DNA of 64,000 nucleotides from positions 1-64,000 of the IMG/VR virus record IMGVR_UViG_3300011113_000257; one strand, given 5' to 3'. Source of the DNA: a virus. A program made the position numbers and the translations under genes. The notes under the pieces are model-generated. The model was not told the origin of the DNA. It saw nothing but the letters and a program-made list of their open reading frames with translations, and made no database searches. Below are positions 20,885 through 51,297 of the stretch, in pieces; positions within the stretch are counted from its first letter, which is position 1, and the number at the start of each line of letters is the position of its first letter.

Positions 20885-23800
20885 CTATCCGTAAATTTCT
20901 GTCCAAGTGTCAGGACTATAATTTCTTATTTCGCCCATTCTGTCCACAAACATATTTAAAATTTCTTGCGGTATGTGAGGACCATATTCTGCTCTAAGCC
21001 TGTCAAAAGCATCATCTATAATCTTGTCGATTAACGCCTTTAGTGTTACAGGACCAAACCTATCATAAAATTGCTTACCAAGTTCATTGCTTTGGGCAAA
21101 ACTTCTTGATAAGTAATCGTATGGACTTTGATATCCTACGCTAGTCTGCTCTAGTGCTGTCTGAACTGCTACGGATGCAGCGTTATCAAACGGAATCGGA
21201 ATGTATGATTCAGATTCATTTTGATGAGATGAACTGTTAGGGACATCATTTCCTCTGACCATTATAACATTCTGAGGATTTCTGTCTTCGTTTTGAATTA
21301 CTGCATCAAGAATTAGCATTCCTAAAGAGTTATTCACGCTTACTCGGCTTGAGACATCAGTTTCATCGATATCAAACAACCTAGACTCACTCATTTTAAC
21401 TAAGTATGCGGTGTCTAGTTCAGGACTATCGTTTGGAGCAACAACAAGTTCCTGAGTTCTAAGTGCAGGGATGCTTAAGTTAGTTCCAAGTTCACTAGTG
21501 ATAATCAAATTTCTGTCATCACTGCTGTGCTTTTCTATAACTGGTAGACCTATAATTCCAAGAGCACGTCCAAGTGCATTAGATGATGTCTCAGCCAAGG
21601 CAGCAGTGTTAGTCGAGGCATCTTTAACATAAAATACTTCTCCAGTTATGTTACTTTCTACTTTCCAACTATTACTTGCTCCAGAGTAAGGACCAGATAT
21701 TGAAGGTCCTGTAGTAGGTGATACGGAAGACTGTCTAACAAGTTTTGTAATTGTTAGAGGAAGGATTTCTCCTGTGTCTGGATTCATAACTTCTTGAGCC
21801 ACGCCCTCAGGCATTAAAGGATTAAAAATGCTTGACGGCAAGGTCAACACGGACTCACCTTGGGAACTAAAACTTTCTCTGTTAGGTTCTAGGGCTAGTC
21901 TATCTTTTTGTAGTGCGCTTAAAATATTGACTAAATCAGAAATAATTCCAGCATCTACAGCCCTTCCAGAAGGCGTGTCTTCATTTGTTAGTGAAAGATT
22001 TTCTTGGTTTGCAAGAGTAGTAGCGATATATTTACCAAGAGCAGCCTTAGCAGGTGGAGATAGTAACGAAACAGAACGACTTCCGTCATAGCCTACAAGT
22101 AGCGTTAACTCGTCTGCATATGGTGCGATAATTTCTCCATCACCTTGATATGTTTCTCTATTAGTGAAGTGTCTTTTTATGTTTTCGTTATTCTCGAAGG
22201 AAGTTTCTCCTGTAGAAGACAAGACATCTACAGCATCTTTCATTGCATCGTAGGCGTGGTTTTGTTTTCTTTCAGTAGCGTTAGGGTCTAGAACTTTTTT
22301 GCCATTCCATTGATTAGCAATCATGTAAGACTTACCGAACCACTTAAGTTGAGTCTTTCTTGCGTTAGGGTCCCAGCCAACCATTGCTAATTCGCGAGGG
22401 GTAGGGAAAGACGGATGTACATCCATAACTGCTGCTTGACGTAGTTCTTCCCAAGAAGAAACGCCATAGGCATCGAAGGCTTGCTGAACGTAAGCCTCCA
22501 TGTCAGCACGAGACCTAGCCTTGTCAGCAGAACCAGAGACATAGCGACTGCCATCTCTTTGGATTTCATCATACATTTTTTTAAGTCTGTCATACCCAAC
22601 AGAAGCACTTGCCCAGTTGAAGCCAGTAATAGCCCAGACATAAGCACCTGTCGCATCGCCACCACCCGCAGCGGTAACTGTAATGAATTTTGCTCCGTTT
22701 GCTATGTAGTAATTTTCAGCAAATTGATTGAATAGAGAGGAGAAACCTGAAGGTGTTGCTCCTTCAATAAACATGCTTGCATTGTAGACATTATCAAGTT
22801 TTCCATCTACAAAGTTAAAAGTTCTACGAGCATTGTATGTTTTTCCTGTAGTAGTGTCTTTTATTGTTACAAAAGCATATATACTACTAGCACCTGTTTC
22901 TCTCACTCTTCCGTCAGCAGTCACTGACTGAACTTTTAGTGCTGGACCAAACATATTTCCAGCGCCTAGTATGAGTTTGAAGGCTTCGTTTAACTCTCTT
23001 TCAGTTCCTTCCCTACTAATTCTAGCAACCTCTGCTATTGAGGGACGAGATGTTCCAGCGCGAGCAATTTGAGCAGCCTTTTGCGCTTCCCAGCCTTTGT
23101 CTTGGAAGTATTGCTGGTCGACAAAATCTCCGTTAGGAGTCAATACTGGGTTGTCATCTATTCTGTCAAAATTAATATCTGACACGCCTTCCATAGAACC
23201 ATCAAACTCTAACTGCTGTACAGGAAGGATTTCTCCCATTAGACGGTTAAGGAATCTCCTAGCAAGAGGTACTCGGTTAGGTGTCAACTCAAGATTTTCA
23301 AAACTTTCTTGAATTTCTCCAGCCTTAGCCGTTGCTCGTGCCTGCTTTGCGGCAAGGGTCTCTTCATTATTCTGAGACACTAATTCGGAGACCTTATCTC
23401 TTATTGAGTCAACTAATTGGTCATAATTACTTGAAGGTGTTAATTCATAAACATCAGACTCGCCATTAGGTTTTACTACGGAAACACTTGCAGAACTTTC
23501 TCCATCAAGGCTTATAGATACGTCTACTTTGTACCCATTTACATAACCCTTTGGCTTGTGCTGGAAAGATGCCTCCCATGTATCGTTGGGACCCGCAGAG
23601 TCTTTTGTAAAACTTCTATATTCAGAAGAATTATAGTCTGGAAGACTTCTAATTAAATCTCCTAATTGTCTTCTAGAAGAACCAAATCTTGTAATTTGAT
23701 ATTGATTCACGCTATCGCTTGCTTTAGTTACAAGTTGGTCGATAGCATCATTAGTTTTAGGCTTTGATGCACCATTTATCAATCGACCATCGTCCGAAAC

Positions 23801-26800
23801 TCTATTTATGGTCCAACCACCTCTACCAAGGCTATGAGTCATAACTCCTTCGTAGCCAGTTAGAGGAATTTTTATAGAAATAGAATTGTTATCTTCTCTG
23901 ATAGACACTTCAAAAGGAGTAGCAGATATTAAATTACCTGCTCTAGTGGCAAACTCGGCTCTAATGTTTTCTAACTCTTCTGGAGTTATTTCTCGGTCTG
24001 CTCTTGGTTGTAGAGGATAAGGGTTTCTAGCAGTAGCCCTACGAACAGTTGGAGTGGTAGCAGTAGTTTGAGCAGGTTCGCTTGTTGTTTGTCTAAAAGG
24101 TCTAGCACCTTCAAGGCGAGATACTGCTTCTAGACCTGCTGCATCAAGGTCGGCAAAATACCCAACTTCATCAAGACCGCCTCTTGCAACAGAGTATCCC
24201 TGAGCATCCTCATCCCACTTAATTCTAACGGCAAGACTACCATTCCTGTCGTCAATAATAAGTAGAGTATCATTTCCTGCTAATCTACTTATTTCTGCCA
24301 TTTTTGCTCTTATGCCGTTTTCTGAATTTCCTGAAGTTAGGCTATTAAAGTTATCTACAAAGTCTGCTAACTCAGTGGCTCTTTCTTGCTCTGGGTTAGT
24401 AGGCGCAAGAGTTGGCGTAGGTTGCTCAGCGCTCTCTTCTTGAATCGGACCTGAAGTTGGTGGAGGAGGTGGAGGAATTGAACCAGCAGGAACTGCATCT
24501 ACACTACGAAGTGCATCTAAGAAATCCCGACCATGACGCGCTCTAGCGGTGTTACTAAACCAATCAACAGAACCATCAGGCTTAAATTCTCCAACATTAC
24601 GCTGTCCTACGGTATCAAAGATATAAACTAAATCTCCAACATCTGTTAAAGCAGTATTTCCTGCTCTTAGGTCTCTACCACCTTTGTCGTAGTAGCCCAT
24701 GAGGTTTTGATAAACCTCTGGAGATAACTGAGACTCGTTGTATAGCGCATCAGTAGGAGTAAGAGTTGATTCAGGTGTTGGAGTGCTAGGAGGTGTCACA
24801 GGCGGGGTTCCGCCACCGTCATTATTGTCTCCGCTAGGACCTGCTGGAGGTGTTGGAGGTGTAGGAGGTGTTCCACCCATCATACGAATCCAAGTACGAC
24901 CACGTCCATCTCGAGAATCTACATCAGGAATCACAAGAGGCAAATCGCTTTGTGCAAGTACAGGCAAACCATTTTGACGACGGTATTCGTTAATTTGGTC
25001 TAGAATTTCGCCCCACATGCGATACGCACGACGAGTTTCACCAACTTGAGCACCTTGACGCTTAGATATATACGGGTAAATCTTTACTTGGTATGTTCCG
25101 TCTTGATTTCGGTAACTTCTCTTGACGATGTATTTATTCGTCAGAGCATATTGCTCTCTACGCATAGGGTCAAGATTTGGACGTGTTTCAAGTTCCTTTG
25201 GTGGTTCGTAATCAGTACGGTTTTCCATACCTGCAGTACGACCATTTAGGAACAACATACGGGTAGCCCATAGAGCATAGGAGCCATCGCGGAACGCAAC
25301 AATTGCATAGCCTTCGCGTGGGATATCTCCATCATTTTCTACAACATGCCAGCCAACTACTGTTCCTTCGCCTCGGCTATTCCAGCCGTCATATGAATGA
25401 ACTACTCTATCGCCAACACGGGCTTGGTTTACTCCGTCAGCGTATATATTGTTTCTTGCTTGCCACTTACGGAAAATTTTGTTTCCAATGATTCTCCTGC
25501 GCATTGCAGGAGTTCCTGACATCATTGACTCATCTGTTGTGTAAGGGGATGAGTCTCCTGGAGTAACTGCACGGACATCAGTATTTGCGTCAAAGTTGTA
25601 GTCAGCCTGTATAGAGCCATCTGCAAGACCATTAATCATGTCCGCATGAAGAGCCTTTGCTTCTCCAAGTGTTGCAGCACTTGATGCCTTTGCTCGTCGG
25701 TTAGGGTTATTAGGGTCAACAGCAACCACTTCGTAGCGCTCTGGAGCGCCGTCAATACGAGGAAGTAGAATTGTTGCTACGTCATACTCTCTACCGTCTG
25801 GACCAACTACACGCTGAGGCGCAATAATAGTTCCACCTTCAAGAATGACGTTACCATCAACAGGAGTTCCCGGTTCGAACACAACTGGTTCTTCGGTACC
25901 TTCTTGGTCGTCATCATTAAGGTCGCTTAGGTCCTTGTTAAGAAGTTCTGTAGTTACATCTTCTGGACTTTCTACAACGCGCTCGCCTTGAGCACCAAAG
26001 ACGCGACCAATACTCAAATCTCCTGCTTGTTCAGGGTCACTCATATCTAGTGGAACAGTAGACTCGTCTGGATTTCTCCATACATAAGAACCTTCACCGT
26101 CTACGCTTTGGTAGATTAAGTAGGCACCGTTTTGAATTCGTGCACGCTTTGCTTCTAAGTTCTGTTGCTTTGAACGGGCTGGCTTCTTAGGAGTTTTTAC
26201 TGCTGGCTGTAGGAATTTGTTAATCTCTTCAGTAGCAGATTTTGCATCTTCTAAAGTTTCAAATCTTTGGAAGTTAGCAATGTTTACTCCCTCGCCAAGG
26301 AAGCGCTCCTGTGCTTCTTCCCAGTTGCTTAAGCCCTTGTCCTTAAAGACACCAACTTCATAACCGCCACCAAAACGCTTAGGCATTTGCATAACTGTAA
26401 TTTTGTAAGCAACGCCATCCTTGTCATAGACAATCGCTTCAGACCTCTGTGTTGGATAAGTAACATCTAGAATCTGTGAAGGCTTTTCTTCTTCAGTAGG
26501 CTTTGTGTCTTTCTCAGCGTTAAACATTTCTAGAGAAAGAGCAATAATGTCTTCATGCAATGCGCGTAGTACGCTATCTCCAATTGTCTGGGCTTCATCA
26601 ACAGAGTCAACAATGTTTTCTTGCTCGCCAACTAAGTCGCCGTTTTCATCAAATACCTTGGTAGTAGCAGTAAGTGTTCCATCTCCGTTATCTTCGACAG
26701 TTGTTTCAGCGTTAAAATCGTCGATATTGTCAGCAGTGTGCTCTAACCTTGGAGCAGGCTTCTCACTAGGTTCTACAACATCAGTTAATGTTGGGTCGCC

Positions 26801-29800
26801 CTCTTCGCCAGTGCTTAGAGAGTTGGCGCTGATTGGACGACGAACATTATCAAGACGTGTACCGCCCCAATAAGGACCACTAACAAATTCTTCGCCACTT
26901 TCAAGGTCAATACGATGGATGCTAAATCGGTTGTCTTCAACCTCTTCAACACCAACAACCTGAGACCAACGGTCACCCTTACGGGTACGCATAAAGTCTC
27001 CAACTTCAAGAGAGTTAGCGCGAACATCTTCACGGTCAATTGGGCGAGTGTTAGCGTCATTTAGTACCCACTCAGTTTTACCTAAGCGAGTTGGCTTTGA
27101 TGCTAAATCTTTAGATGCCTTTACACCAGCAACATCTTCAGCAGATTCTGGAGTGATATTTTCAGTAGTGTTTTTAGCATCACTAACTAACTGGTCAACA
27201 TCAACATCGTTACCAGCAAGAGCATTTGCTACAGCCTGAGACATATTCCATGCTTCAAGGTCGCGTAGGTAGTTAGGGTAAGTTACTGAGTCATAGAAGG
27301 CTGAATCTTCTGCGTGCTTAGCAGCGATTGCATCAACATCAAACTGACCATTAGCAAGGTTCTCTGCTTGAGCGCGGTCAAGAAGTTTTCCAAAGATTAA
27401 CGCTGCTGCTTCTGCATCAGCATCGGCACTATGCCAGTTCTCTAGTGATACTCCGTACTCTTCTGCAAGTTTACCTAAGGCAACTCCCTTGCGAGGGTTA
27501 CCAGCATCAGCATTAATTGCTCTAGCAAGAGACTGAGGGTCAATGTAGCCTGTAGGAGTGAAATCTACACCTGTGTTAGATAAAACATTTTCCAAGAATT
27601 TACGGTCAAACCTAGAGTTCTGAGCGCCAAGAATCGTATCGGCTCCGACCCAATCAGCAAATGCTTGATGAGCCTCTTCCATACTTGCTTGTTGTTGTAG
27701 GAACTCGTCGGACAGAGGATTTCCATCGCCGTCCTTTAGGTTGTCTTTTGACCAACCTTCAAGCGGTCTACCTGGATTCATGTACATATTGAATCGGTCT
27801 ACTACAACGCCATCTTTAATCTTTACAGCGCCAAGTTGAACAGGGTTTTCTGTATTAGGGTCAAGACCAGTTGTTTCGTAGTCAAAGAATGTGAAGGTCA
27901 TGCCCTTCATAGCCTCGCGAAGATTTTCCCAACTTCCAGCCTCGCGTAGCATTTCAGCAAATGCACCCTGTGCAAATGGGTCGCTTACCTCGAAAGGAGA
28001 GCGTGGCTCGCGTTCAGGAACTGGGCGAGGTGCTTCTCGGAGCGCAGGGTTGACTTCCTGAGGGTAGTCAACTTCTGGAGCATCGCTTGGGAAGTTATAA
28101 AGTGATGCAGCAGTAGCGAGGTTCTGATTGTATTGCTTAAGAAACTCTGGGTCAGTGTTGCGAACATAACGTCCGTCAATAACTTCACCTTGGTTGATTG
28201 CAGGCAATGGACCTGATTCAGGAAGTTCACTGTTACGAATAACTTCCATCTTGTATTCGCGACCGTTGCGACCTTCTTGACGAGGCTTCCACTGCTTTTC
28301 TTGGAGTTCGTGTCCTGGGTAGTAGCCCTTGACTATAAGAAGACCTTGATTGATTGCATCTGCATGGTCTGGATTGTCTGGGTTAGGGTCAGAAACGCTA
28401 ACAATAACAAAGTTACCTTTGGTCGCGTCAGCCATAACATCGCCTGGCTTAAGTTCGTTTGTGTGAACTTTTACGCGGTGGATGTCTGTGGTTGGATTAA
28501 ATTCGTAAGAGGCTACGTCGTAGCGATTAGTCCAACGCCCACGCGCTGCATTAATCATTCCGCGCCATTTAGCGTAAGCAAGTTTAAATTCTTGGCTATT
28601 GCTTCCGCCTTGGAAGTCTGCGTATCTAGGCTTATGAATTTCTGGAAGATTACCTGACATAGGCATATCTTCTGCTGGGATGCCTCTTACAAAGTTAATA
28701 GGAGTTGTGTTTTTCCATAACTTTTCTTGTACTGGGTGCCCTGGGAAGTAACCCTTAACAGAAATTTTACCGCGAGAATCTGGTTCGGTTCCAACTTCAG
28801 TAATAGTAAAGTTATCGCCAATTGTTACATCGCCAGGTTGCATATCAGTTACAGGAGCACTGAACTTTACAATGCTTGCCTTGCTAGGAAGATTGCTTTC
28901 TGTATTGAGACCCCAGATATCTTCAGGAGAGTCTGTAACTTTTGTTTCGGCATTAGGATTTTTGTATGAAGAAGGGTTAAAAGTCGTAAACTTTTGCGCA
29001 TCAGAACTTACATCTACAACTACTGTTCGGTCAATCTCGTTACCATAAGCATCAAAGCCAGTGATATATCCAGTGATAGATGAGGTGGTTACACCGTTTT
29101 CATCAGTATCCTCAATAATTTCCTCATCACGAGGAGTGAACCCCATATACCAAGAGTGAGAGCCATTAGGTACGTCTACATCAAATTGACTTGGGTCAAT
29201 GTAGTCGCCAAACTCAAGTTCGTTGAGTGGTAGATTTGATTGCTTTACTGATAGAGGAGTACCAGCAGGACTTACTGGTCCTGTTGCTTCTTCTTCAGCG
29301 CTTGTCCCAGACCCCTCGCGTATTCCCTCAGTTCCTCTTCCGTCATCTGGTTGAGTTTCTTCGGTGCCTTCACTAGGCTGACTTTCTGTGGCTTCTTCTC
29401 GGTCACCAGTTCCTCCTGTATTAACTACTTCGTTACTACCAATATCATAGATTGCTTGCTGATTTCTGTCAATTCCAGCCTGAATACCTGCTTCTCTGTC
29501 ACTGAAAACCTCAGAAACATCAAGCACCATCTCGTTATTTTCTTCATCGTGCCAGAAACCTAAGTACATATTGTCTTCAGAAAGTGCGTCCTTGTTTTCA
29601 GCAAGGTAGTCGTAAATGTACTTTTCTGGGTCAGACATAAACTCGTCGAAGTTAATTTCTTTATTGAATCCCTGACGGGCTACAACAAAGCCTTCTGTCG
29701 GCTCCGAGCCGTCAAGCGTGTCAATCGTTAGACCTCCGCCAGGCTGGATTCCACGAGCGCGTTCAGCAATAACTTCTGTAACGGAAGGCTCTTCTGCGAT

Positions 29801-32368
29801 GCCTTCGCCATCCATCATTGCTTGCATTTCTTCGTCAGTTAGGTCACCAGATGAGCGACCTTCTTCTACGTCAGAAGCAACTGGCTTATTATCAGCCTGC
29901 GCAGCCCAAGCGCGGTCGGCAATTTCTTGAAGGATTTCGTTGGTATCTTCGCCTTGAAGTTGAAGCGCATCGCGAATGTATTCTGGAGCAATTTCCATAA
30001 CAAACTCGTCGCCATTTTCATCAGTGTAGGAGAATGGTGCTTTGCCTGCGGAATATTTGCTGCCTTCATCACGAGGCTCTAGAGCAAACTCGAGGCTGTC
30101 AATAAGGTCCTCAGAAGGAAAATCTTGTGCAAGAACATATGGGTCATCAGTCCAACCAACAGGAATGCCTTCTTGGTTTAGAGCATCCCCTTCTTCAACT
30201 GTGAGGATATCTTCAAGAGCGACTGGGTTAGGGTCAATCTGAGTGTAACTCTCTGGAAATTTGATGTCTTCATTGCTTGGTAAAAATGGAACGTGGTCAA
30301 AACCGCTATCAACCCATGACTGCAACTCATCTTCAGTCAGACCTTCAATAAGAGCAGGGTGGTTAGGGTCTTCTTCTTCGCTCTCTTCTTCAGCAGTATT
30401 TACATCTTCAATTGGCTGTTTGCCCTTCGCAGGAGTTATTTCGCTAACTTCTGGGATATCTTTAATGCGGTCGAGAGCGTCTGCAACGTCCTCGCCTCTA
30501 ATTTCTGCAATAGGCTTTGCTTCTGGAGTTTCTACTACAGAAGGTTCTTCTATTTCCGCTTCTGGTTCTTGTGCGCGGTCTAGGCGAGCCTTGCCCTTTT
30601 CATAAGTGTCAGCAACAAACTTATCTGCATTCTTACCTTGCTTCTTAAGAGCAAAGTAAAGTGCTTCTGCTGGAACTTCTTCTACTCCCTCGTTGAACTC
30701 TAAACCGCCGTAGCCTAAGCCATTAATACGGTCTAGACTGTCTCCAATAAGAGCCTCTTGTAGAGCGTTAGCAATTTCCCGTGGCTTAAATTTAGTAGCA
30801 AGTGTTTCAGGGTCATCGGTGAAGTCAGTGCTGTCTTCAGTTACGCGACCGCTTGGAGTGTAGTCTCCTTGCTCGAGTTCGTAAGCACCCTGCGGAACTT
30901 CAAGAGCAGGAGCAGTTTCCTTAGGAAGTTTTGCAATAGGTTGTTGTTTTTCTTCTTTTTTGTCTTGCTGTATTTCCTGTCCACCAAGTTTTTTAGTGAT
31001 AGCCTCTGCGCCCTTGCGGAAGTCATCTTCAAAGCCTTGGAATTTTTTACCAAAAGTTACTTGATTTGGTCTAGCATCTGCATCATTAGCAAGTACGTTA
31101 GCAATATTTTCTGCTTGCTCGGCAAGTTGTTCTGGGGTACGGTCTGAAGGGGCAGTGCCGTCACGTAGGAATGCAGCAATGTTTTGTGCAACATTGCGCA
31201 TTGCTCCTGCAGTTTCGTTGTTTGCAATTTCGTCAAGACCTTCAAGAAGCATGTCTTCAGTAATCTCTTGTGACGGCTCAGCCCCGCCAATAGCATCTTT
31301 TGCGGACTCGTCAAGCATTGAAGCCCAACTATCGCCCTTAGCAACTTCGTCTCCATTTTCGTCAATCAAACGGTAAGACTTTGAGCCGTCCTCATTGTCA
31401 GTCTGAGCAACAGTGTAAACACCATCTGAGAAAGCCTTTTCGCCTGGGTTGCCTTGAAAATTATCTACTGGCACCCAGCCTGCAGGAGAATCTACAAACT
31501 CTAAATCTGCTTCGTCAATAATGTCTGACTCATCTGCTGCTGAAAGACGAGCAGGAACAGGACTATAGCCATCTTTAGTTTTTCCTGGAAGATATGCTTC
31601 AACATTTTCTACAGAACTTGCAGGAACGCGAACAATGCCTTTAGGAGTTTGAATATCATAAGTATTTGAACTGGCAGTAGCACCGACCACGGTGCCAGTC
31701 AGCCAGCGCTTAGAGCCATCTTTAGTGCGTACAGGAACACGGGCTCCACCACCTTGGTAAGCAAATTGACCTAAGCGGTTACGAAGTTGGCGCATAGCAC
31801 GCATACGACGATTAATATAAGAGTTACCATCGCCAGAGAATGCTGCAGTAATTGCTTCAAGGGCTTGCGCACCATCTCGAGTGGAACTCAAGCGAGTTGT
31901 AGCGTACTTACGCTGTTCTTCAGTTGACTCAACTGAGAAAGCAGAAGCAAGAAGAGGAGCATGTTCTTCAGAAATACGAGGGTCAGCCAAGTACCACTGC
32001 ATCTGAGCATCTGCAAGAGCAGAAGCAGTCATTGCATGAGGTGCTGCTGAGAATGGGTGAGCAGTTGTAAGAAGGTCAGAGTACTTAGAAACTGAAGAGT
32101 AAGAAACATGACCTTGCGCAAGATTAATGAATGACTTAAGTTCATTAAATGCGTAACTACGACGACTAGAGAAAAGACTAAAGTGGCGACTTTCGTTTAG
32201 AGCACGCCAAACTACTTCGATAGCAGATGCATCAGTTACTTGACGTAGTGGAGCAACTCTGGAGTTAGCAGAGGCAACAACAGCCAAAACGTCTTGACGA
32301 ATTAAAAGAGCCTGTTCAACTGCTGAACGACGCTTCACGCCTTTAGTTACTTTAGTTCTGTTATTCAC
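20885..32368 (-). CDS. Giant (3827 aa) multidomain putative virion protein with DEDDh exonuclease, GNAT-like and HipA/PI4K-like kinase domains
   Basis: FFDYETTG...AQNSRFD...HSADAD (~27390-27901); NYYIANGAKFITVTAAGGGDATGAYVWAITGF (~22600-22800); YVKD...AE...DAVIQNEDRNPQN...PFDN (~20900-21700). Confidence 0.8.
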   Translation of the reverse strand: MNNRTKVTKGVKRRSAVEQALLIRQDVLAVVASANSRVAPLRQVTDASAIEVVWRALNESRHFSLFSSRRSYAFNELKSFINLAQGHVSYSSVSKYSDLLTTAHPFSAAPHAMTASALADAQMQWYLADPRISEEHAPLLASAFSVESTEEQRKYATTRLSSTRDGAQALEAITAAFSGDGNSYINRRMRAMRQLRNRLGQFAYQGGGARVPVRTKDGSKRWLTGTVVGATASSNTYDIQTPKGIVRVPASSVENVEAYLPGKTKDGYSPVPARLSAADESDIIDEADLEFVDSPAGWVPVDNFQGNPGEKAFSDGVYTVAQTDNEDGSKSYRLIDENGDEVAKGDSWASMLDESAKDAIGGAEPSQEITEDMLLEGLDEIANNETAGAMRNVAQNIAAFLRDGTAPSDRTPEQLAEQAENIANVLANDADARPNQVTFGKKFQGFEDDFRKGAEAITKKLGGQEIQQDKKEEKQQPIAKLPKETAPALEVPQGAYELEQGDYTPSGRVTEDSTDFTDDPETLATKFKPREIANALQEALIGDSLDRINGLGYGGLEFNEGVEEVPAEALYFALKKQGKNADKFVADTYEKGKARLDRAQEPEAEIEEPSVVETPEAKPIAEIRGEDVADALDRIKDIPEVSEITPAKGKQPIEDVNTAEEESEEEDPNHPALIEGLTEDELQSWVDSGFDHVPFLPSNEDIKFPESYTQIDPNPVALEDILTVEEGDALNQEGIPVGWTDDPYVLAQDFPSEDLIDSLEFALEPRDEGSKYSAGKAPFSYTDENGDEFVMEIAPEYIRDALQLQGEDTNEILQEIADRAWAAQADNKPVASDVEEGRSSGDLTDEEMQAMMDGEGIAEEPSVTEVIAERARGIQPGGGLTIDTLDGSEPTEGFVVARQGFNKEINFDEFMSDPEKYIYDYLAENKDALSEDNMYLGFWHDEENNEMVLDVSEVFSDREAGIQAGIDRNQQAIYDIGSNEVVNTGGTGDREEATESQPSEGTEETQPDDGRGTEGIREGSGTSAEEEATGPVSPAGTPLSVKQSNLPLNELEFGDYIDPSQFDVDVPNGSHSWYMGFTPRDEEIIEDTDENGVTTSSITGYITGFDAYGNEIDRTVVVDVSSDAQKFTTFNPSSYKNPNAETKVTDSPEDIWGLNTESNLPSKASIVKFSAPVTDMQPGDVTIGDNFTITEVGTEPDSRGKISVKGYFPGHPVQEKLWKNTTPINFVRGIPAEDMPMSGNLPEIHKPRYADFQGGSNSQEFKLAYAKWRGMINAARGRWTNRYDVASYEFNPTTDIHRVKVHTNELKPGDVMADATKGNFVIVSVSDPNPDNPDHADAINQGLLIVKGYYPGHELQEKQWKPRQEGRNGREYKMEVIRNSELPESGPLPAINQGEVIDGRYVRNTDPEFLKQYNQNLATAASLYNFPSDAPEVDYPQEVNPALREAPRPVPEREPRSPFEVSDPFAQGAFAEMLREAGSWENLREAMKGMTFTFFDYETTGLDPNTENPVQLGAVKIKDGVVVDRFNMYMNPGRPLEGWSKDNLKDGDGNPLSDEFLQQQASMEEAHQAFADWVGADTILGAQNSRFDRKFLENVLSNTGVDFTPTGYIDPQSLARAINADAGNPRKGVALGKLAEEYGVSLENWHSADADAEAAALIFGKLLDRAQAENLANGQFDVDAIAAKHAEDSAFYDSVTYPNYLRDLEAWNMSQAVANALAGNDVDVDQLVSDAKNTTENITPESAEDVAGVKASKDLASKPTRLGKTEWVLNDANTRPIDREDVRANSLEVGDFMRTRKGDRWSQVVGVEEVEDNRFSIHRIDLESGEEFVSGPYWGGTRLDNVRRPISANSLSTGEEGDPTLTDVVEPSEKPAPRLEHTADNIDDFNAETTVEDNGDGTLTATTKVFDENGDLVGEQENIVDSVDEAQTIGDSVLRALHEDIIALSLEMFNAEKDTKPTEEEKPSQILDVTYPTQRSEAIVYDKDGVAYKITVMQMPKRFGGGYEVGVFKDKGLSNWEEAQERFLGEGVNIANFQRFETLEDAKSATEEINKFLQPAVKTPKKPARSKQQNLEAKRARIQNGAYLIYQSVDGEGSYVWRNPDESTVPLDMSDPEQAGDLSIGRVFGAQGERVVESPEDVTTELLNKDLSDLNDDDQEGTEEPVVFEPGTPVDGNVILEGGTIIAPQRVVGPDGREYDVATILLPRIDGAPERYEVVAVDPNNPNRRAKASSAATLGEAKALHADMINGLADGSIQADYNFDANTDVRAVTPGDSSPYTTDESMMSGTPAMRRRIIGNKIFRKWQARNNIYADGVNQARVGDRVVHSYDGWNSRGEGTVVGWHVVENDGDIPREGYAIVAFRDGSYALWATRMLFLNGRTAGMENRTDYEPPKELETRPNLDPMRREQYALTNKYIVKRSYRNQDGTYQVKIYPYISKRQGAQVGETRRAYRMWGEILDQINEYRRQNGLPVLAQSDLPLVIPDVDSRDGRGRTWIRMMGGTPPTPPTPPAGPSGDNNDGGGTPPVTPPSTPTPESTLTPTDALYNESQLSPEVYQNLMGYYDKGGRDLRAGNTALTDVGDLVYIFDTVGQRNVGEFKPDGSVDWFSNTARARHGRDFLDALRSVDAVPAGSIPPPPPPTSGPIQEESAEQPTPTLAPTNPEQERATELADFVDNFNSLTSGNSENGIRAKMAEISRLAGNDTLLIIDDRNGSLAVRIKWDEDAQGYSVARGGLDEVGYFADLDAAGLEAVSRLEGARPFRQTTSEPAQTTATTPTVRRATARNPYPLQPRADREITPEELENIRAEFATRAGNLISATPFEVSIREDNNSISIKIPLTGYEGVMTHSLGRGGWTINRVSDDGRLINGASKPKTNDAIDQLVTKASDSVNQYQITRFGSSRRQLGDLIRSLPDYNSSEYRSFTKDSAGPNDTWEASFQHKPKGYVNGYKVDVSISLDGESSASVSVVKPNGESDVYELTPSSNYDQLVDSIRDKVSELVSQNNEETLAAKQARATAKAGEIQESFENLELTPNRVPLARRFLNRLMGEILPVQQLEFDGSMEGVSDINFDRIDDNPVLTPNGDFVDQQYFQDKGWEAQKAAQIARAGTSRPSIAEVARISREGTERELNEAFKLILGAGNMFGPALKVQSVTADGRVRETGASSIYAFVTIKDTTTGKTYNARRTFNFVDGKLDNVYNASMFIEGATPSGFSSLFNQFAENYYIANGAKFITVTAAGGGDATGAYVWAITGFNWASASVGYDRLKKMYDEIQRDGSRYVSGSADKARSRADMEAYVQQAFDAYGVSSWEELRQAAVMDVHPSFPTPRELAMVGWDPNARKTQLKWFGKSYMIANQWNGKKVLDPNATERKQNHAYDAMKDAVDVLSSTGETSFENNENIKRHFTNRETYQGDGEIIAPYADELTLLVGYDGSRSVSLLSPPAKAALGKYIATTLANQENLSLTNEDTPSGRAVDAGIISDLVNILSALQKDRLALEPNRESFSSQGESVLTLPSSIFNPLMPEGVAQEVMNPDTGEILPLTITKLVRQSSVSPTTGPSISGPYSGASNSWKVESNITGEVFYVKDASTNTAALAETSSNALGRALGIIGLPVIEKHSSDDRNLIITSELGTNLSIPALRTQELVVAPNDSPELDTAYLVKMSESRLFDIDETDVSSRVSVNNSLGMLILDAVIQNEDRNPQNVIMVRGNDVPNSSSHQNESESYIPIPFDNAASVAVQTALEQTSVGYQSPYDYLSRSFAQSNELGKQFYDRFGPVTLKALIDKIIDDAFDRLRAEYGPHIPQEILNMFVDRMGEIRNYSPDTWTEIYG

Positions 32369-42857: not shown

Positions 42858-43204
42858 CTTGCTCTCCTTTTTATCGCCCCTTGCGATAGTTCTATCATAA
42901 CACAAGTCTCTGACCTTTGTCAAGTTAAACGCTAGACGCGCCACCGAAAGGGGATAAGGTGACGCGCCTAACATTTATGAGTGGGGAGAAAGGGGGGGCA
43001 ACCCCACTCGTATTCGGAGCATAGGGAGAAGGGAGAAAACCCTCGCTCTACGAACTCCTCTACTTTAGCATAAAAAAATTTCAGTTATGCCTCCGTGTCG
43101 GAAAATTTAACAATCCCCACAAACTGACTTACTCGAAACCTTTTTCGAGTCAAGCCCAAACCTTTTACCGCATCTCCAACAATTAGTAAAGATAGTCACT
43201 ACCC

Positions 43205-43740: not shown

Positions 43741-43935
43741 TTATTTGTCGTTGATACCTAACAAAGCGAAAATTTCATCTTCGTTCAAGACAGTAACCTT
43801 GTCGCCACTATCATCAACAATTTTTACGCTAGTTACACGGTAAGAGTTAGCAACCAAGTCACGAACTTCTTGCGCCGTGTTAGCGGTAAAACTGTACTCG
43901 TTATCTTTCGACTTCATTGTTACGTTGTAAGCCAT
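43741..43935 (-). CDS. Hypothetical protein (64 aa)
   Basis: Start MAYNVT after AAGGGAG; the track's longer start runs through the ncRNA candidate. Confidence 0.65.
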   Translation of the reverse strand: MAYNVTMKSKDNEYSFTANTAQEVRDLVANSYRVTSVKIVDDSGDKVTVLNEDEIFALLGINDK

Positions 43936-43993
43936 TTCGTTCTCCCTTCTTGGCTCTACCCTTCCCGCACTTTGCGGAAAAGTTTTCAGTTTA

Positions 43994-44135
43994 TGAAGTA
44001 GGTAGGTGGCTCTCTCAACCACCTGTATGCGCTTCCCCACGCTTCCTATTCGGCTACCTACTTCAGTATTGACTGGCGAACTACGCACCGCACTCCAGTT
44101 GTAGTTTTCTTACCTAGTGCAAGACCAGTCAAGTC
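43994..44135 (-). ncRNA. Candidate structured ncRNA (pseudoknot domain plus tRNA-like cloverleaf)
   Basis: Stems 44132-44125/44076-44069 and 44065-44055/44004-43994; own promoter at 44159-44187. Confidence 0.5.
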
Positions 44136-44188
44136 TTTCTCTATTTAGTTATGACCCTAGTCTATCATACTAGGTTTGCTTTCGCAAG

Positions 44189-44267
44189 TCCCAAGAGTAG
44201 GAATCGAACCTACCGTGCCAAAGCGAGTGATTTACAGTCACCTTCCCCACCTTGAGGAATCCTTGGG
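44189..44267 (-). tRNA. trnY: tRNA-Tyr(GTA), atypical D arm, no encoded CCA
   Basis: Acceptor CCCAAGG/TCTTGGG; anticodon arm GGTGA-CTGTAAA-TCACT; long variable region; T arm GTAGG-TTCGATT-CCTAC; promoter at 44287-44315. Confidence 0.75.
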
Positions 44268-44301
44268 GTTATTTAGTTATGGAACTAGTTTATCATACTA
44301 G

Positions 44302-44469
44302 TTATCTTTTTGCAAGTTCTTCGATTAATCTTGTTCGGCGTACAACATCTTTCGTACTCCAACCTTGACCAATCTCCGCGCAAGACTCCAAGTAGTAATC
44401 TAAGTCCTGAATTTCATCGTGAAGTTCGTTCACGGTGAGTTCCTCTACTGGTTTGTTTCTTGTAAGCAT
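44302..44469 (-). CDS. Hypothetical protein (55 aa), not in ORF track
   Basis: MLTRNKPVEELTVNELHDEIQ...; SD; promoter at 44491-44519. Confidence 0.6.
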   Translation of the reverse strand: MLTRNKPVEELTVNELHDEIQDLDYYLESCAEIGQGWSTKDVVRRTRLIEELAKR

Positions 44470-48490: not shown

Positions 48491-48594
48491 TTTGTTCTCC
48501 TTTTTGTTTTCGCGGGCTATCCGCTTAGTAATACTTTATCATACTATTTTGTTTGGTGCAAGTAGTAGGGGGCTTGCGCCCCCCACCGCATTTG

Positions 48595-50101: not shown

Positions 50102-50269
50102 TTGGGTTTCCCTTCTGTAAGCAAGTCCCTCTTGCTCACTCTGTGAGTTTATCATACTAGCCTGACATTCGCAACTCAAACGAAAAACTTTTTTCGTGTC
50201 GCCATAACTGAAATTTTTTAAGTAGGCAACAAAAAATCCGCGCAATCTTCCGCGCGGACTTTCTTTTGT

Positions 50270-51129: not shown

Positions 51130-51297
51130 TTTGTTTTCCCTTCCGTAAGCAAGTCCGTCTTGCTCACTCTGTAAGTTTATCATACTAGCCTGACATTTGC
51201 AACCTGAACGCGAAACTATTTTTTCCGCGCCCGCGCCAGAAAAAATTTCAGTTTTCAATTTGAGATAAACGCGGATTTCTCCGCGCTCTCTCGTTTG

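Follow-up and report, generated by a model that had tools for sequence, protein, structure and literature searches.

The minus-strand element beside the tRNA-Tyr gene is a real, conserved, orphan structured RNA, and it is non-coding, lying in the 5' leader that belongs to ORF64, an early gene of 64 aa. It is narrower and more ordinary than an earlier note had proposed: its core is a single domain (Domain 2) lying in a gene leader, and the second domain (Domain 1), which carries a candidate pseudoknot, is optional. The function that we favour, with a probability of about 0.4, is that of a leader or 5'-protective module, which would act in cis on the ORF64 message after being set free by tRNA processing.

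The window, that is the whole stretch of DNA analysed here, corresponds to positions 1-64,000 of an IMG/VR record of 110.9 kb, estimated to be 83% complete (G000). It encodes portal, major head, head-tail adaptor and major tail proteins. The nearest match of the capsid protein is found in the Actinomycetia phage DSL-LC01, from lake water (66% identity), and the next-nearest ones in phages of Microbacterium, Gordonia, Arthrobacter and Mycobacterium. The source phage is an uncultured freshwater siphovirus with a capsid most like those of actinobacterial phages, and the ranking of the capsid matches points to an actinobacterial host. An open reading frame of 3827 aa (20885-32368, minus strand) adjoins the portal gene. 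The element is located within a minus-strand region of many small genes, where the usual order is a promoter-like TTGC(A/G)A, 17 nt and a TG-extended -10 box, followed by a short hairpin and a Shine-Dalgarno (SD) sequence. The features discussed below are listed in Table 1.

Table 1. Positions, within the window, of the element, its helices and the neighbouring features; promoters are predicted
Feature	Position	Strand	Description
Promoter P1 (predicted)	44287..44315	-	-35 TTGCAA, 17-nt spacer, TG-extended -10 TAAACT; pattern match
tRNA-Tyr, anticodon GTA	44188..44267	-	ARAGORN; long variable arm, no encoded CCA
Promoter P2 (predicted)	44159..44187	-	-35 TTGCGA, 17-nt spacer, TG-extended -10 TAGACT; pattern match
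Domain 1, 64 nt	44069..44132	-	8-bp closing helix around H-type pseudoknot (5 + 6 bp) or nested three-way fold
Domain 1 closing helix	44132-44125 with 44076-44069	-	
Domain 1 GCACU/AGUGC	44120-44116 with 44094-44090	-	interleaved with AACUAC/GUAGUU
Domain 1 AACUAC/GUAGUU	44106-44101 with 44084-44079	-	interleaved with GCACU/AGUGC
Domain 2, 72 nt	43994..44065	-	constant core; four-way junction; MFE -31.5 kcal/mol, z -5.46
Domain 2 closing stem, 11 bp	44065-44055 with 44004-43994	-	
Domain 2 first arm, 2 bp	44053-44045	-	
Domain 2 second arm, 4 bp	44042-44029	-	
Domain 2 last arm	44023-44005	-	7 bp, 5-nt loop GAGAG (RNAfold); stacks directly on closing stem
Early-leader hairpin, 9 bp, loop AAAGU	43960..43982	-	just 5' of ORF64 ribosome-binding site
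ORF64, 64 aa, ORFan early gene	43741..43935	-	leader contains element; ribosome-binding GGGAG at 43946-43942

Every helix claimed for the two domains is present on the minus strand, all ten helix strands being found at the expected positions. The ability to fold was evaluated on the whole element, taken as a 151-nt stretch, for which a minimum folding energy (MFE) of -56.6 kcal/mol was predicted (z -4.94), none of 200 shuffles being as good. When a 142-nt stretch was folded in both orientations, -55.9 kcal/mol was obtained on the transcribed strand vs -38.9 kcal/mol on the opposite one (z -1.67); since the opposite-strand fold is much weaker, folding is a property of the transcribed strand. 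In a genome-wide MFE comparison of 150-nt segments, the element is among the most structured ones, with a hand-computed residual from the GC regression of about -3.2 sd, and several other segments of the early region are comparably structured. A second non-coding stretch, about 0.7 kb downstream of ORF64 (42920-43110, minus strand), folds even more strongly (MFE -74.2 kcal/mol, z -6.34); it forms three long hairpins, whose C/U-rich loops resemble anti-Shine-Dalgarno sequences.

Domain 2 had been described as an 11-bp stem closing three arms, arranged as a tRNA-like cloverleaf. The stem and the last arm abutting it are confirmed, while one of the remaining arms is made of merely 2 bp. As first proposed, the last arm had 5 bp (44023-44019 with 44009-44005) and a 9-nt loop, and abutted the closing stem; in the 7-bp form reported in Table 1, arm and closing stem stack into an 18-nt continuous 3' strand, directly followed by UAAA. 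The likeness to a tRNA holds for size and outline and fails for the signatures. Domain 2 has no 7-nt T-loop (UUCRANY), no 7-bp acceptor stem and no CCA; ARAGORN, at 30-50% thresholds, called no tRNA on the RNA strand in either domain or in the insert found in a sister phage (see below), and found no tmRNA in either a standard or a relaxed search; none of the tRNA-clan covariance models scores the element at E <= 10. Neither tRNA finders nor covariance models support the tRNA mimic that had been suggested. The 9-nt string GUGGGGAAG is common to the 3' half of the tRNA D arm (44240-44250) and to the loop of the second arm of Domain 2 (44030-44042), both on the minus strand. A derivation of Domain 2 from tRNA-Tyr was considered and rejected, the best local alignment having a p-value of 0.066, which may be chance, and the other domains p-values above 0.3. 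One strand of the closing stem has an exact 12-nt match elsewhere in the genome, outside the window (91799-91810; blastn-short E about 1.2), which is probably due to chance.

Domain 1 folds less distinctively when taken alone (z -2.85). The interleaved helices of the proposed H-type pseudoknot, of 5 and 6 bp, do exist, and perfect interleaved helices of at least 5 and at least 6 bp were produced by only 44 of 5000 dinucleotide shuffles of the domain interior (0.9%). The pseudoknotted form is less secure, as it competes with a nested fold of -23.6 kcal/mol, at least as stable as a rough estimate for the pseudoknot, which sums -10.8 kcal/mol and about -9 kcal/mol of stacking and leaves the pseudoknot penalty still to be charged. 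The pseudoknot is therefore a plausible candidate only.

The tRNA-Tyr(GTA) gene is the sole tRNA found by ARAGORN in the window. It falls below the Rfam tRNA threshold, its best Rfam score being 32 bits with the tRNA-Sec model. A tRNA-Tyr carried by a phage as its lone tRNA could serve to offset a host defence that cleaves tRNA-Tyr. The core promoter motif was found at five sites, vs 0.24 expected. Extended -10 boxes of the TAGTATGATA(A/G)ACT type are located, on the minus strand, at 44285-44301, 44157-44173, 48531-48547, 50144-50160 and 51172-51188. The layout of P2 is common to four other early promoters in the window; the shared leader CATAACTAAATA follows only two of the five -10 boxes, namely those flanking tRNA-Tyr. 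P2 with its leader, which begins with CATAACTAAATA, is a near-duplicate of P1 with its leader, and for this reason the optional module containing P2 looks like the product of a local duplication. The claim that the element has its own promoter is upheld as far as a promoter-like site is present; the site is a pattern match only, and is absent from one of the variants described below (L086). P1 probably drives tRNA-Tyr and, in L086, everything downstream. A small UUGC-GAAA-GCAA hairpin (44174-44188, minus strand) lies directly 3' of the tRNA and overlaps the -35 box of P2; with it, an RNA processed at the tRNA 3' end would start with a helix one base from its end in the window and in the sister-phage locus L002, and likewise in L086.

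Downstream of the tRNA, no terminator-like site was found from 44188 to 43741 on the minus strand; the element is therefore part of the ORF64 5' leader, and a discrete primary transcript of it appears unlikely. About 15 A/U-rich bases separate Domain 2 from the early-leader hairpin, which is followed by the SD. The same kind of hairpin is carried by other early leaders and, since the other early genes consist of promoter, short hairpin and SD, the tRNA-Tyr and the domains look like cargo inserted between a promoter and a standard early leader. ORF64 itself forms one 90% cluster with no other homologue, and could be assigned neither to a Pfam family nor, at E <= 0.001, to a fold in the PDB; its AlphaFold2 model (pLDDT 83) shows the order strand-strand-helix-strand-strand-helix.

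Three DNA variants of the locus were compared: the window, the sister phage (L002, G002) and L086, a contig obtained from a metagenome scan. In the window, tRNA-Tyr is followed by P2, Domain 1 and Domain 2. L086 contains P1, tRNA-Tyr, one base, Domain 2, the leader hairpin, the SD and ORF64, without P2 and without Domain 1, so that the closing stem of Domain 2 begins two bases past the tRNA discriminator. The sister phage carries a 111-nt insert between P2 and Domain 1 (L002 2686-2800), closed by an 8-9-bp helix and otherwise folding no better than shuffles (z -0.63); the insert has no Rfam match at E <= 10 and no other copy in viral contigs. Further variants are known indirectly, from read-through 'proteins' called across the leader on other contigs. 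In one of these (P0043), the N-terminus corresponds to the middle of the L002 insert fused to the final 17 nt of Domain 1, which implies a deletion of about 105 nt destroying both insert and Domain 1; on this contig Domain 1 would be partly deleted. The N-terminus of another (P0010) would fit a Domain 1 deprived of its interior.

Segments come and go freely in the tract that separates tRNA-Tyr from Domain 2, and Domain 2 is present in every variant seen. The optional modules of this tract are P2, Domain 1 and, in the sister phage, the 111-nt insert. As Domain 1 and the candidate pseudoknot within it are missing from L086 and, by the above reasoning, partly deleted in the P0043 and P0010 contigs, the two domains are not one unit, and their description as a single element has to be given up. 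The series of architectures (tRNA-Domain 2; tRNA-P2-Domain 1-Domain 2; tRNA-P2-insert-Domain 1-Domain 2; deletion forms) amounts to a natural deletion experiment, showing which part matters.

The extent of sequence variation points to the same part. Among the three DNA variants, variable sites are 1 of 71 in Domain 2, 1 of 80 in the tRNA and 1 of 57 in trailer, hairpin and SD, vs 22 of 168 and 17 of 195 in the flanking genes and 28 of 121 at third-codon positions; all variants are close relatives, and these figures rest on few substitutions. By this comparison, Domain 2 is under selective constraint at the nucleotide level and is about as conserved as the tRNA, its junctions and loops being as conserved as its stems. 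Together with the z-score of the whole element and the strand bias of folding, this constraint bears out the view of a real, strand-specific, non-coding structured RNA adjoining the tRNA.

Six substitutions were mapped by script within stems, five of them back-inferred from amino acids rather than read from DNA. All six keep pairing, and each makes or resolves a G-U pair on the RNA-sense strand; on the other strand, or if the DNA formed a cruciform, the same changes would give mismatches. One, C44128 to U, turns a C-G into a U-G pair in the closing helix of Domain 1; of the three in Domain 2, one changes G-C to G-U within the closing stem, and the last arm has a U-G to U-A and a G-C to G-U change; the leader hairpin accounts for the other two, at 43964 and 43977. 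Four other substitutions are located in loops or junctions, and the interdomain linker varies in length. With transitions alone, six out of six would retain pairing with a probability of about 0.06; with transversions allowed as well, the probability is lower. Double compensatory changes were not found: no pair changed on both sides among the variants, and support by covariation is accordingly missing. The substitution data may thus be considered compatible with the structure, short of proof.

In order to place the element among known RNAs, the window was searched against Rfam 15. No family matches the element at the gathering threshold; at E <= 10, searches with 801 nt, with the bare element and with the L002 insert produced noise only, the top scores on the bare element being 12 bits for mir-75 and 9 bits for Xist. 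Novelty with respect to Rfam is therefore maintained. Relatives were looked for by using two covariance models, R1 for both domains and R2 for Domain 2 only. Over 42 related IMG/VR phage records and DSL-LC01, only G000 and the sister G002 match. A blastn search of the locus against 50,697 phage records gave no match, and pattern and protein scans of viral contigs returned only G002, plus one chance match to coding sequence (L004). Three matches to genome contigs of Firmicutes MAGs were discarded as chance, the arm positions not being complementary, and no host homologue was found in the prokaryote genome contigs scanned. Paralogues of either domain are absent from the whole genome and from all loci (blastn-short). 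ORF64 and its upstream neighbour gene are as narrowly distributed as the element, which, on these scans, is confined to one narrow freshwater phage lineage.

The favoured function, that of a protective leader for the ORF64 message, combines these observations as follows. tRNA-Tyr, Domain 2 and ORF64 would be co-transcribed from P1, and P2, where present, would give additional transcript starts. In tRNAs without an encoded CCA, RNase Z is expected to cut just after the discriminator base; as this tRNA-Tyr is of that type, a cut is predicted after its discriminator, and in L086 it would create a new 5' end a single base away from Domain 2. By stacking on the last arm, the closing stem would constitute a 5'-terminal structure resisting nucleases that depend on the 5' end, and would protect the ORF64 message. 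A second cut in the A/U-rich trailer might let Domain 2 persist as a tRNA-sized (72-nt) stable RNA. Domain 1 would be an accessory, arrived with the duplicated promoter and dispensable for the core function. In the window, transcripts from P2 would begin with about 20 unpaired bases, and 5' protection therefore cannot explain everything there. A plain hairpin would suffice for protecting a 5' end, and the branched, conserved junction goes beyond that reading; the conservation of junctions and loops at the level of the stems suggests that Domain 2 may bind a specific partner as well.

The same features could be accounted for, more tentatively, by a stable small RNA acting in trans: Domain 2, with or without Domain 1, would be excised by tRNA-processing enzymes and serve, for example, as a decoy for a factor binding or cleaving tRNAs. 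Domain 2 has the size of a tRNA and a long stem that secures both its ends; it is next to the tRNA in L086 and, like the tRNA, sits between promoter and standard leader; the conservation of its loops and junctions would also be suitable, and phage T4 offers a precedent, with two stable RNAs in its tRNA cluster. The missing tRNA signatures (ARAGORN, Rfam) speak against it, as do the lack of a visible terminator or defined 3' end and of partner genes: TROVE/Ro60 (PF05731) is absent from G000 (83% complete), G002 (89%), G001 and DSL-LC01, in searches where controls responded, and an RtcB gene was not found in G000. In addition, Domain 2 is always linked to ORF64, so that a role in cis is equally possible for it. 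A bolder version is doubtful: Domain 2 would represent a new class of tRNA-sized stable RNA of phages, freed by the host tRNA 3'-processing enzyme; the target of this RNA, in trans, would be a host factor, and it might, for example, serve as a decoy where phage and host defence compete for tRNA-Tyr, with Domain 1 and the L002 insert as exchangeable add-ons.

It is unlikely that Domain 2 is a protein operator, bound by the ORF64 product or by another early protein which would set translation or decay of the ORF64 message. The constant linkage to ORF64, through about 25 variants, and the conserved junction and loop bases would suit such a site, but the SD and start codon are located 50-60 nt downstream, behind a separate conserved hairpin, and would stay uncovered, and the ORF64 model has no recognisable RNA-binding fold.

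A decaying relic, in which a tandem duplicate of the promoter and tRNA unit has degenerated into a fortuitously structured and functionless spacer, is quite improbable for the element as a whole. The near-copy of P1 and its leader at P2, the free gain and loss of segments next to the tRNA, the shuffle-like folding of the L002 insert and the string shared by tRNA D arm and Domain 2 would all be expected of a relic; the conservation of Domain 2, similar to that of a functional tRNA and far above that of synonymous sites, and substitutions that keep pairing would not, and the similarity to the tRNA is not significant. This explanation suits Domain 1 and the L002 insert better than Domain 2.

The earlier note had also suggested a riboswitch or ribozyme; that the element founds a new class of riboswitches or self-cleaving ribozymes is very improbable. 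What might bring one to mind is the compact arrangement of several helices, with a possible pseudoknot, located in a 5' leader and outside any known family. However, no known riboswitch aptamer or ribozyme model of Rfam scores the element at E <= 10, including those of the small self-cleaving families (hammerhead, twister, twister-sister, pistol, hatchet, HDV-like); neither a terminator nor an alternative pairing sequestering the SD is visible, the pairing having been checked by reading only; the pseudoknot domain is dispensable in nature; and the downstream gene is an ORFan without metabolic link.

Finally, the structure could be coding sequence, if the 115-aa ORF which extends ORF64 upstream (44088-43741, minus strand) were translated. 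In the window this frame is open from a GTG preceded, at 4 nt, by GGAG, so that the statement that no SD-led ORF is present does not hold strictly, and gene callers do call the ORF on some contigs; yet it is unconserved and can safely be set aside as not coding, since the frame leading into ORF64 is interrupted in L086 by three stops, owing to the loss of 1 nt after Domain 2, in several variants one extra A in the interdomain linker shifts the frame of Domain 1 into an unrelated peptide, the N-terminal part is missing wherever Domain 1 is absent, and ORF64 has its own SD and ATG. Translation of this extension, which the earlier note had named as refuting its reading, is not supported by the variants. 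The translation of a plus-strand ORF running across Domain 2 matches no database entries.

If Domain 2 is functional, it would be an orphan structured RNA without relatives outside one narrow freshwater phage lineage, and a case in which tRNA processing serves to fix the end of the RNA next to it. The value of the system is limited by the uncultured host, by the ORFan nature of the downstream gene and by variants too alike for covariation.

Among known systems, the YrlA-type Y RNAs bear on the suggestion of a Y-RNA-like decoy. They are modular RNAs of actinobacteria and their phages, which include a tRNA-like cloverleaf module with nearly invariant T and D arms and a GNCGAAN0-1G motif near the 5' end; their genes have a Ro60/Rsr (TROVE) gene on the same strand, at most about 4 kb away (PMC4201824). 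Domain 2 comes close to this motif with GCCGAAUAG near its 5' end, a near miss in which GCCGAA is followed by two bases before the G, that is with the wrong spacing. Unlike YrlA, it has no T arm or T-loop and no score with any Rfam model, and no TROVE gene is present in the genomes named above; the suggested kinship fails on these points.

The tRNA cluster of phage T4 contains the stable RNAs 'species 1' and 'species 2' (rnaC, rnaD), whose function is unknown. Like the element, they are small structured RNAs adjoining phage tRNA genes. Transcribed together with the tRNAs, they are set free by tRNA-processing enzymes, a route which for the element is a prediction; in contrast to them, the element is located within the leader of a protein gene, and has no matching RNA family for comparison.

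tRNA-like processing signals are known from mascRNA-type elements, and tRNA-mRNA co-transcripts from cases such as the E. coli tufB operon. In these, an RNA near or resembling a tRNA sets the ends of neighbouring transcripts through RNase P or RNase Z, as might happen here. Domain 2 differs in failing the tests of tRNA-likeness; the cleavage site would be supplied by the real tRNA.

Stabilisers located at the 5' end of messages include the E. coli ompA leader and the 5' stabiliser of phage SP82 in B. subtilis. The likeness lies in a stable structure near the 5' end of the message, the position that Domain 2 would take, in the layout of L086, after removal of the tRNA. Known stabilisers of this kind are simple hairpins or SD-like tracts, whereas Domain 2, as a putative stabiliser, is a conserved four-way junction.
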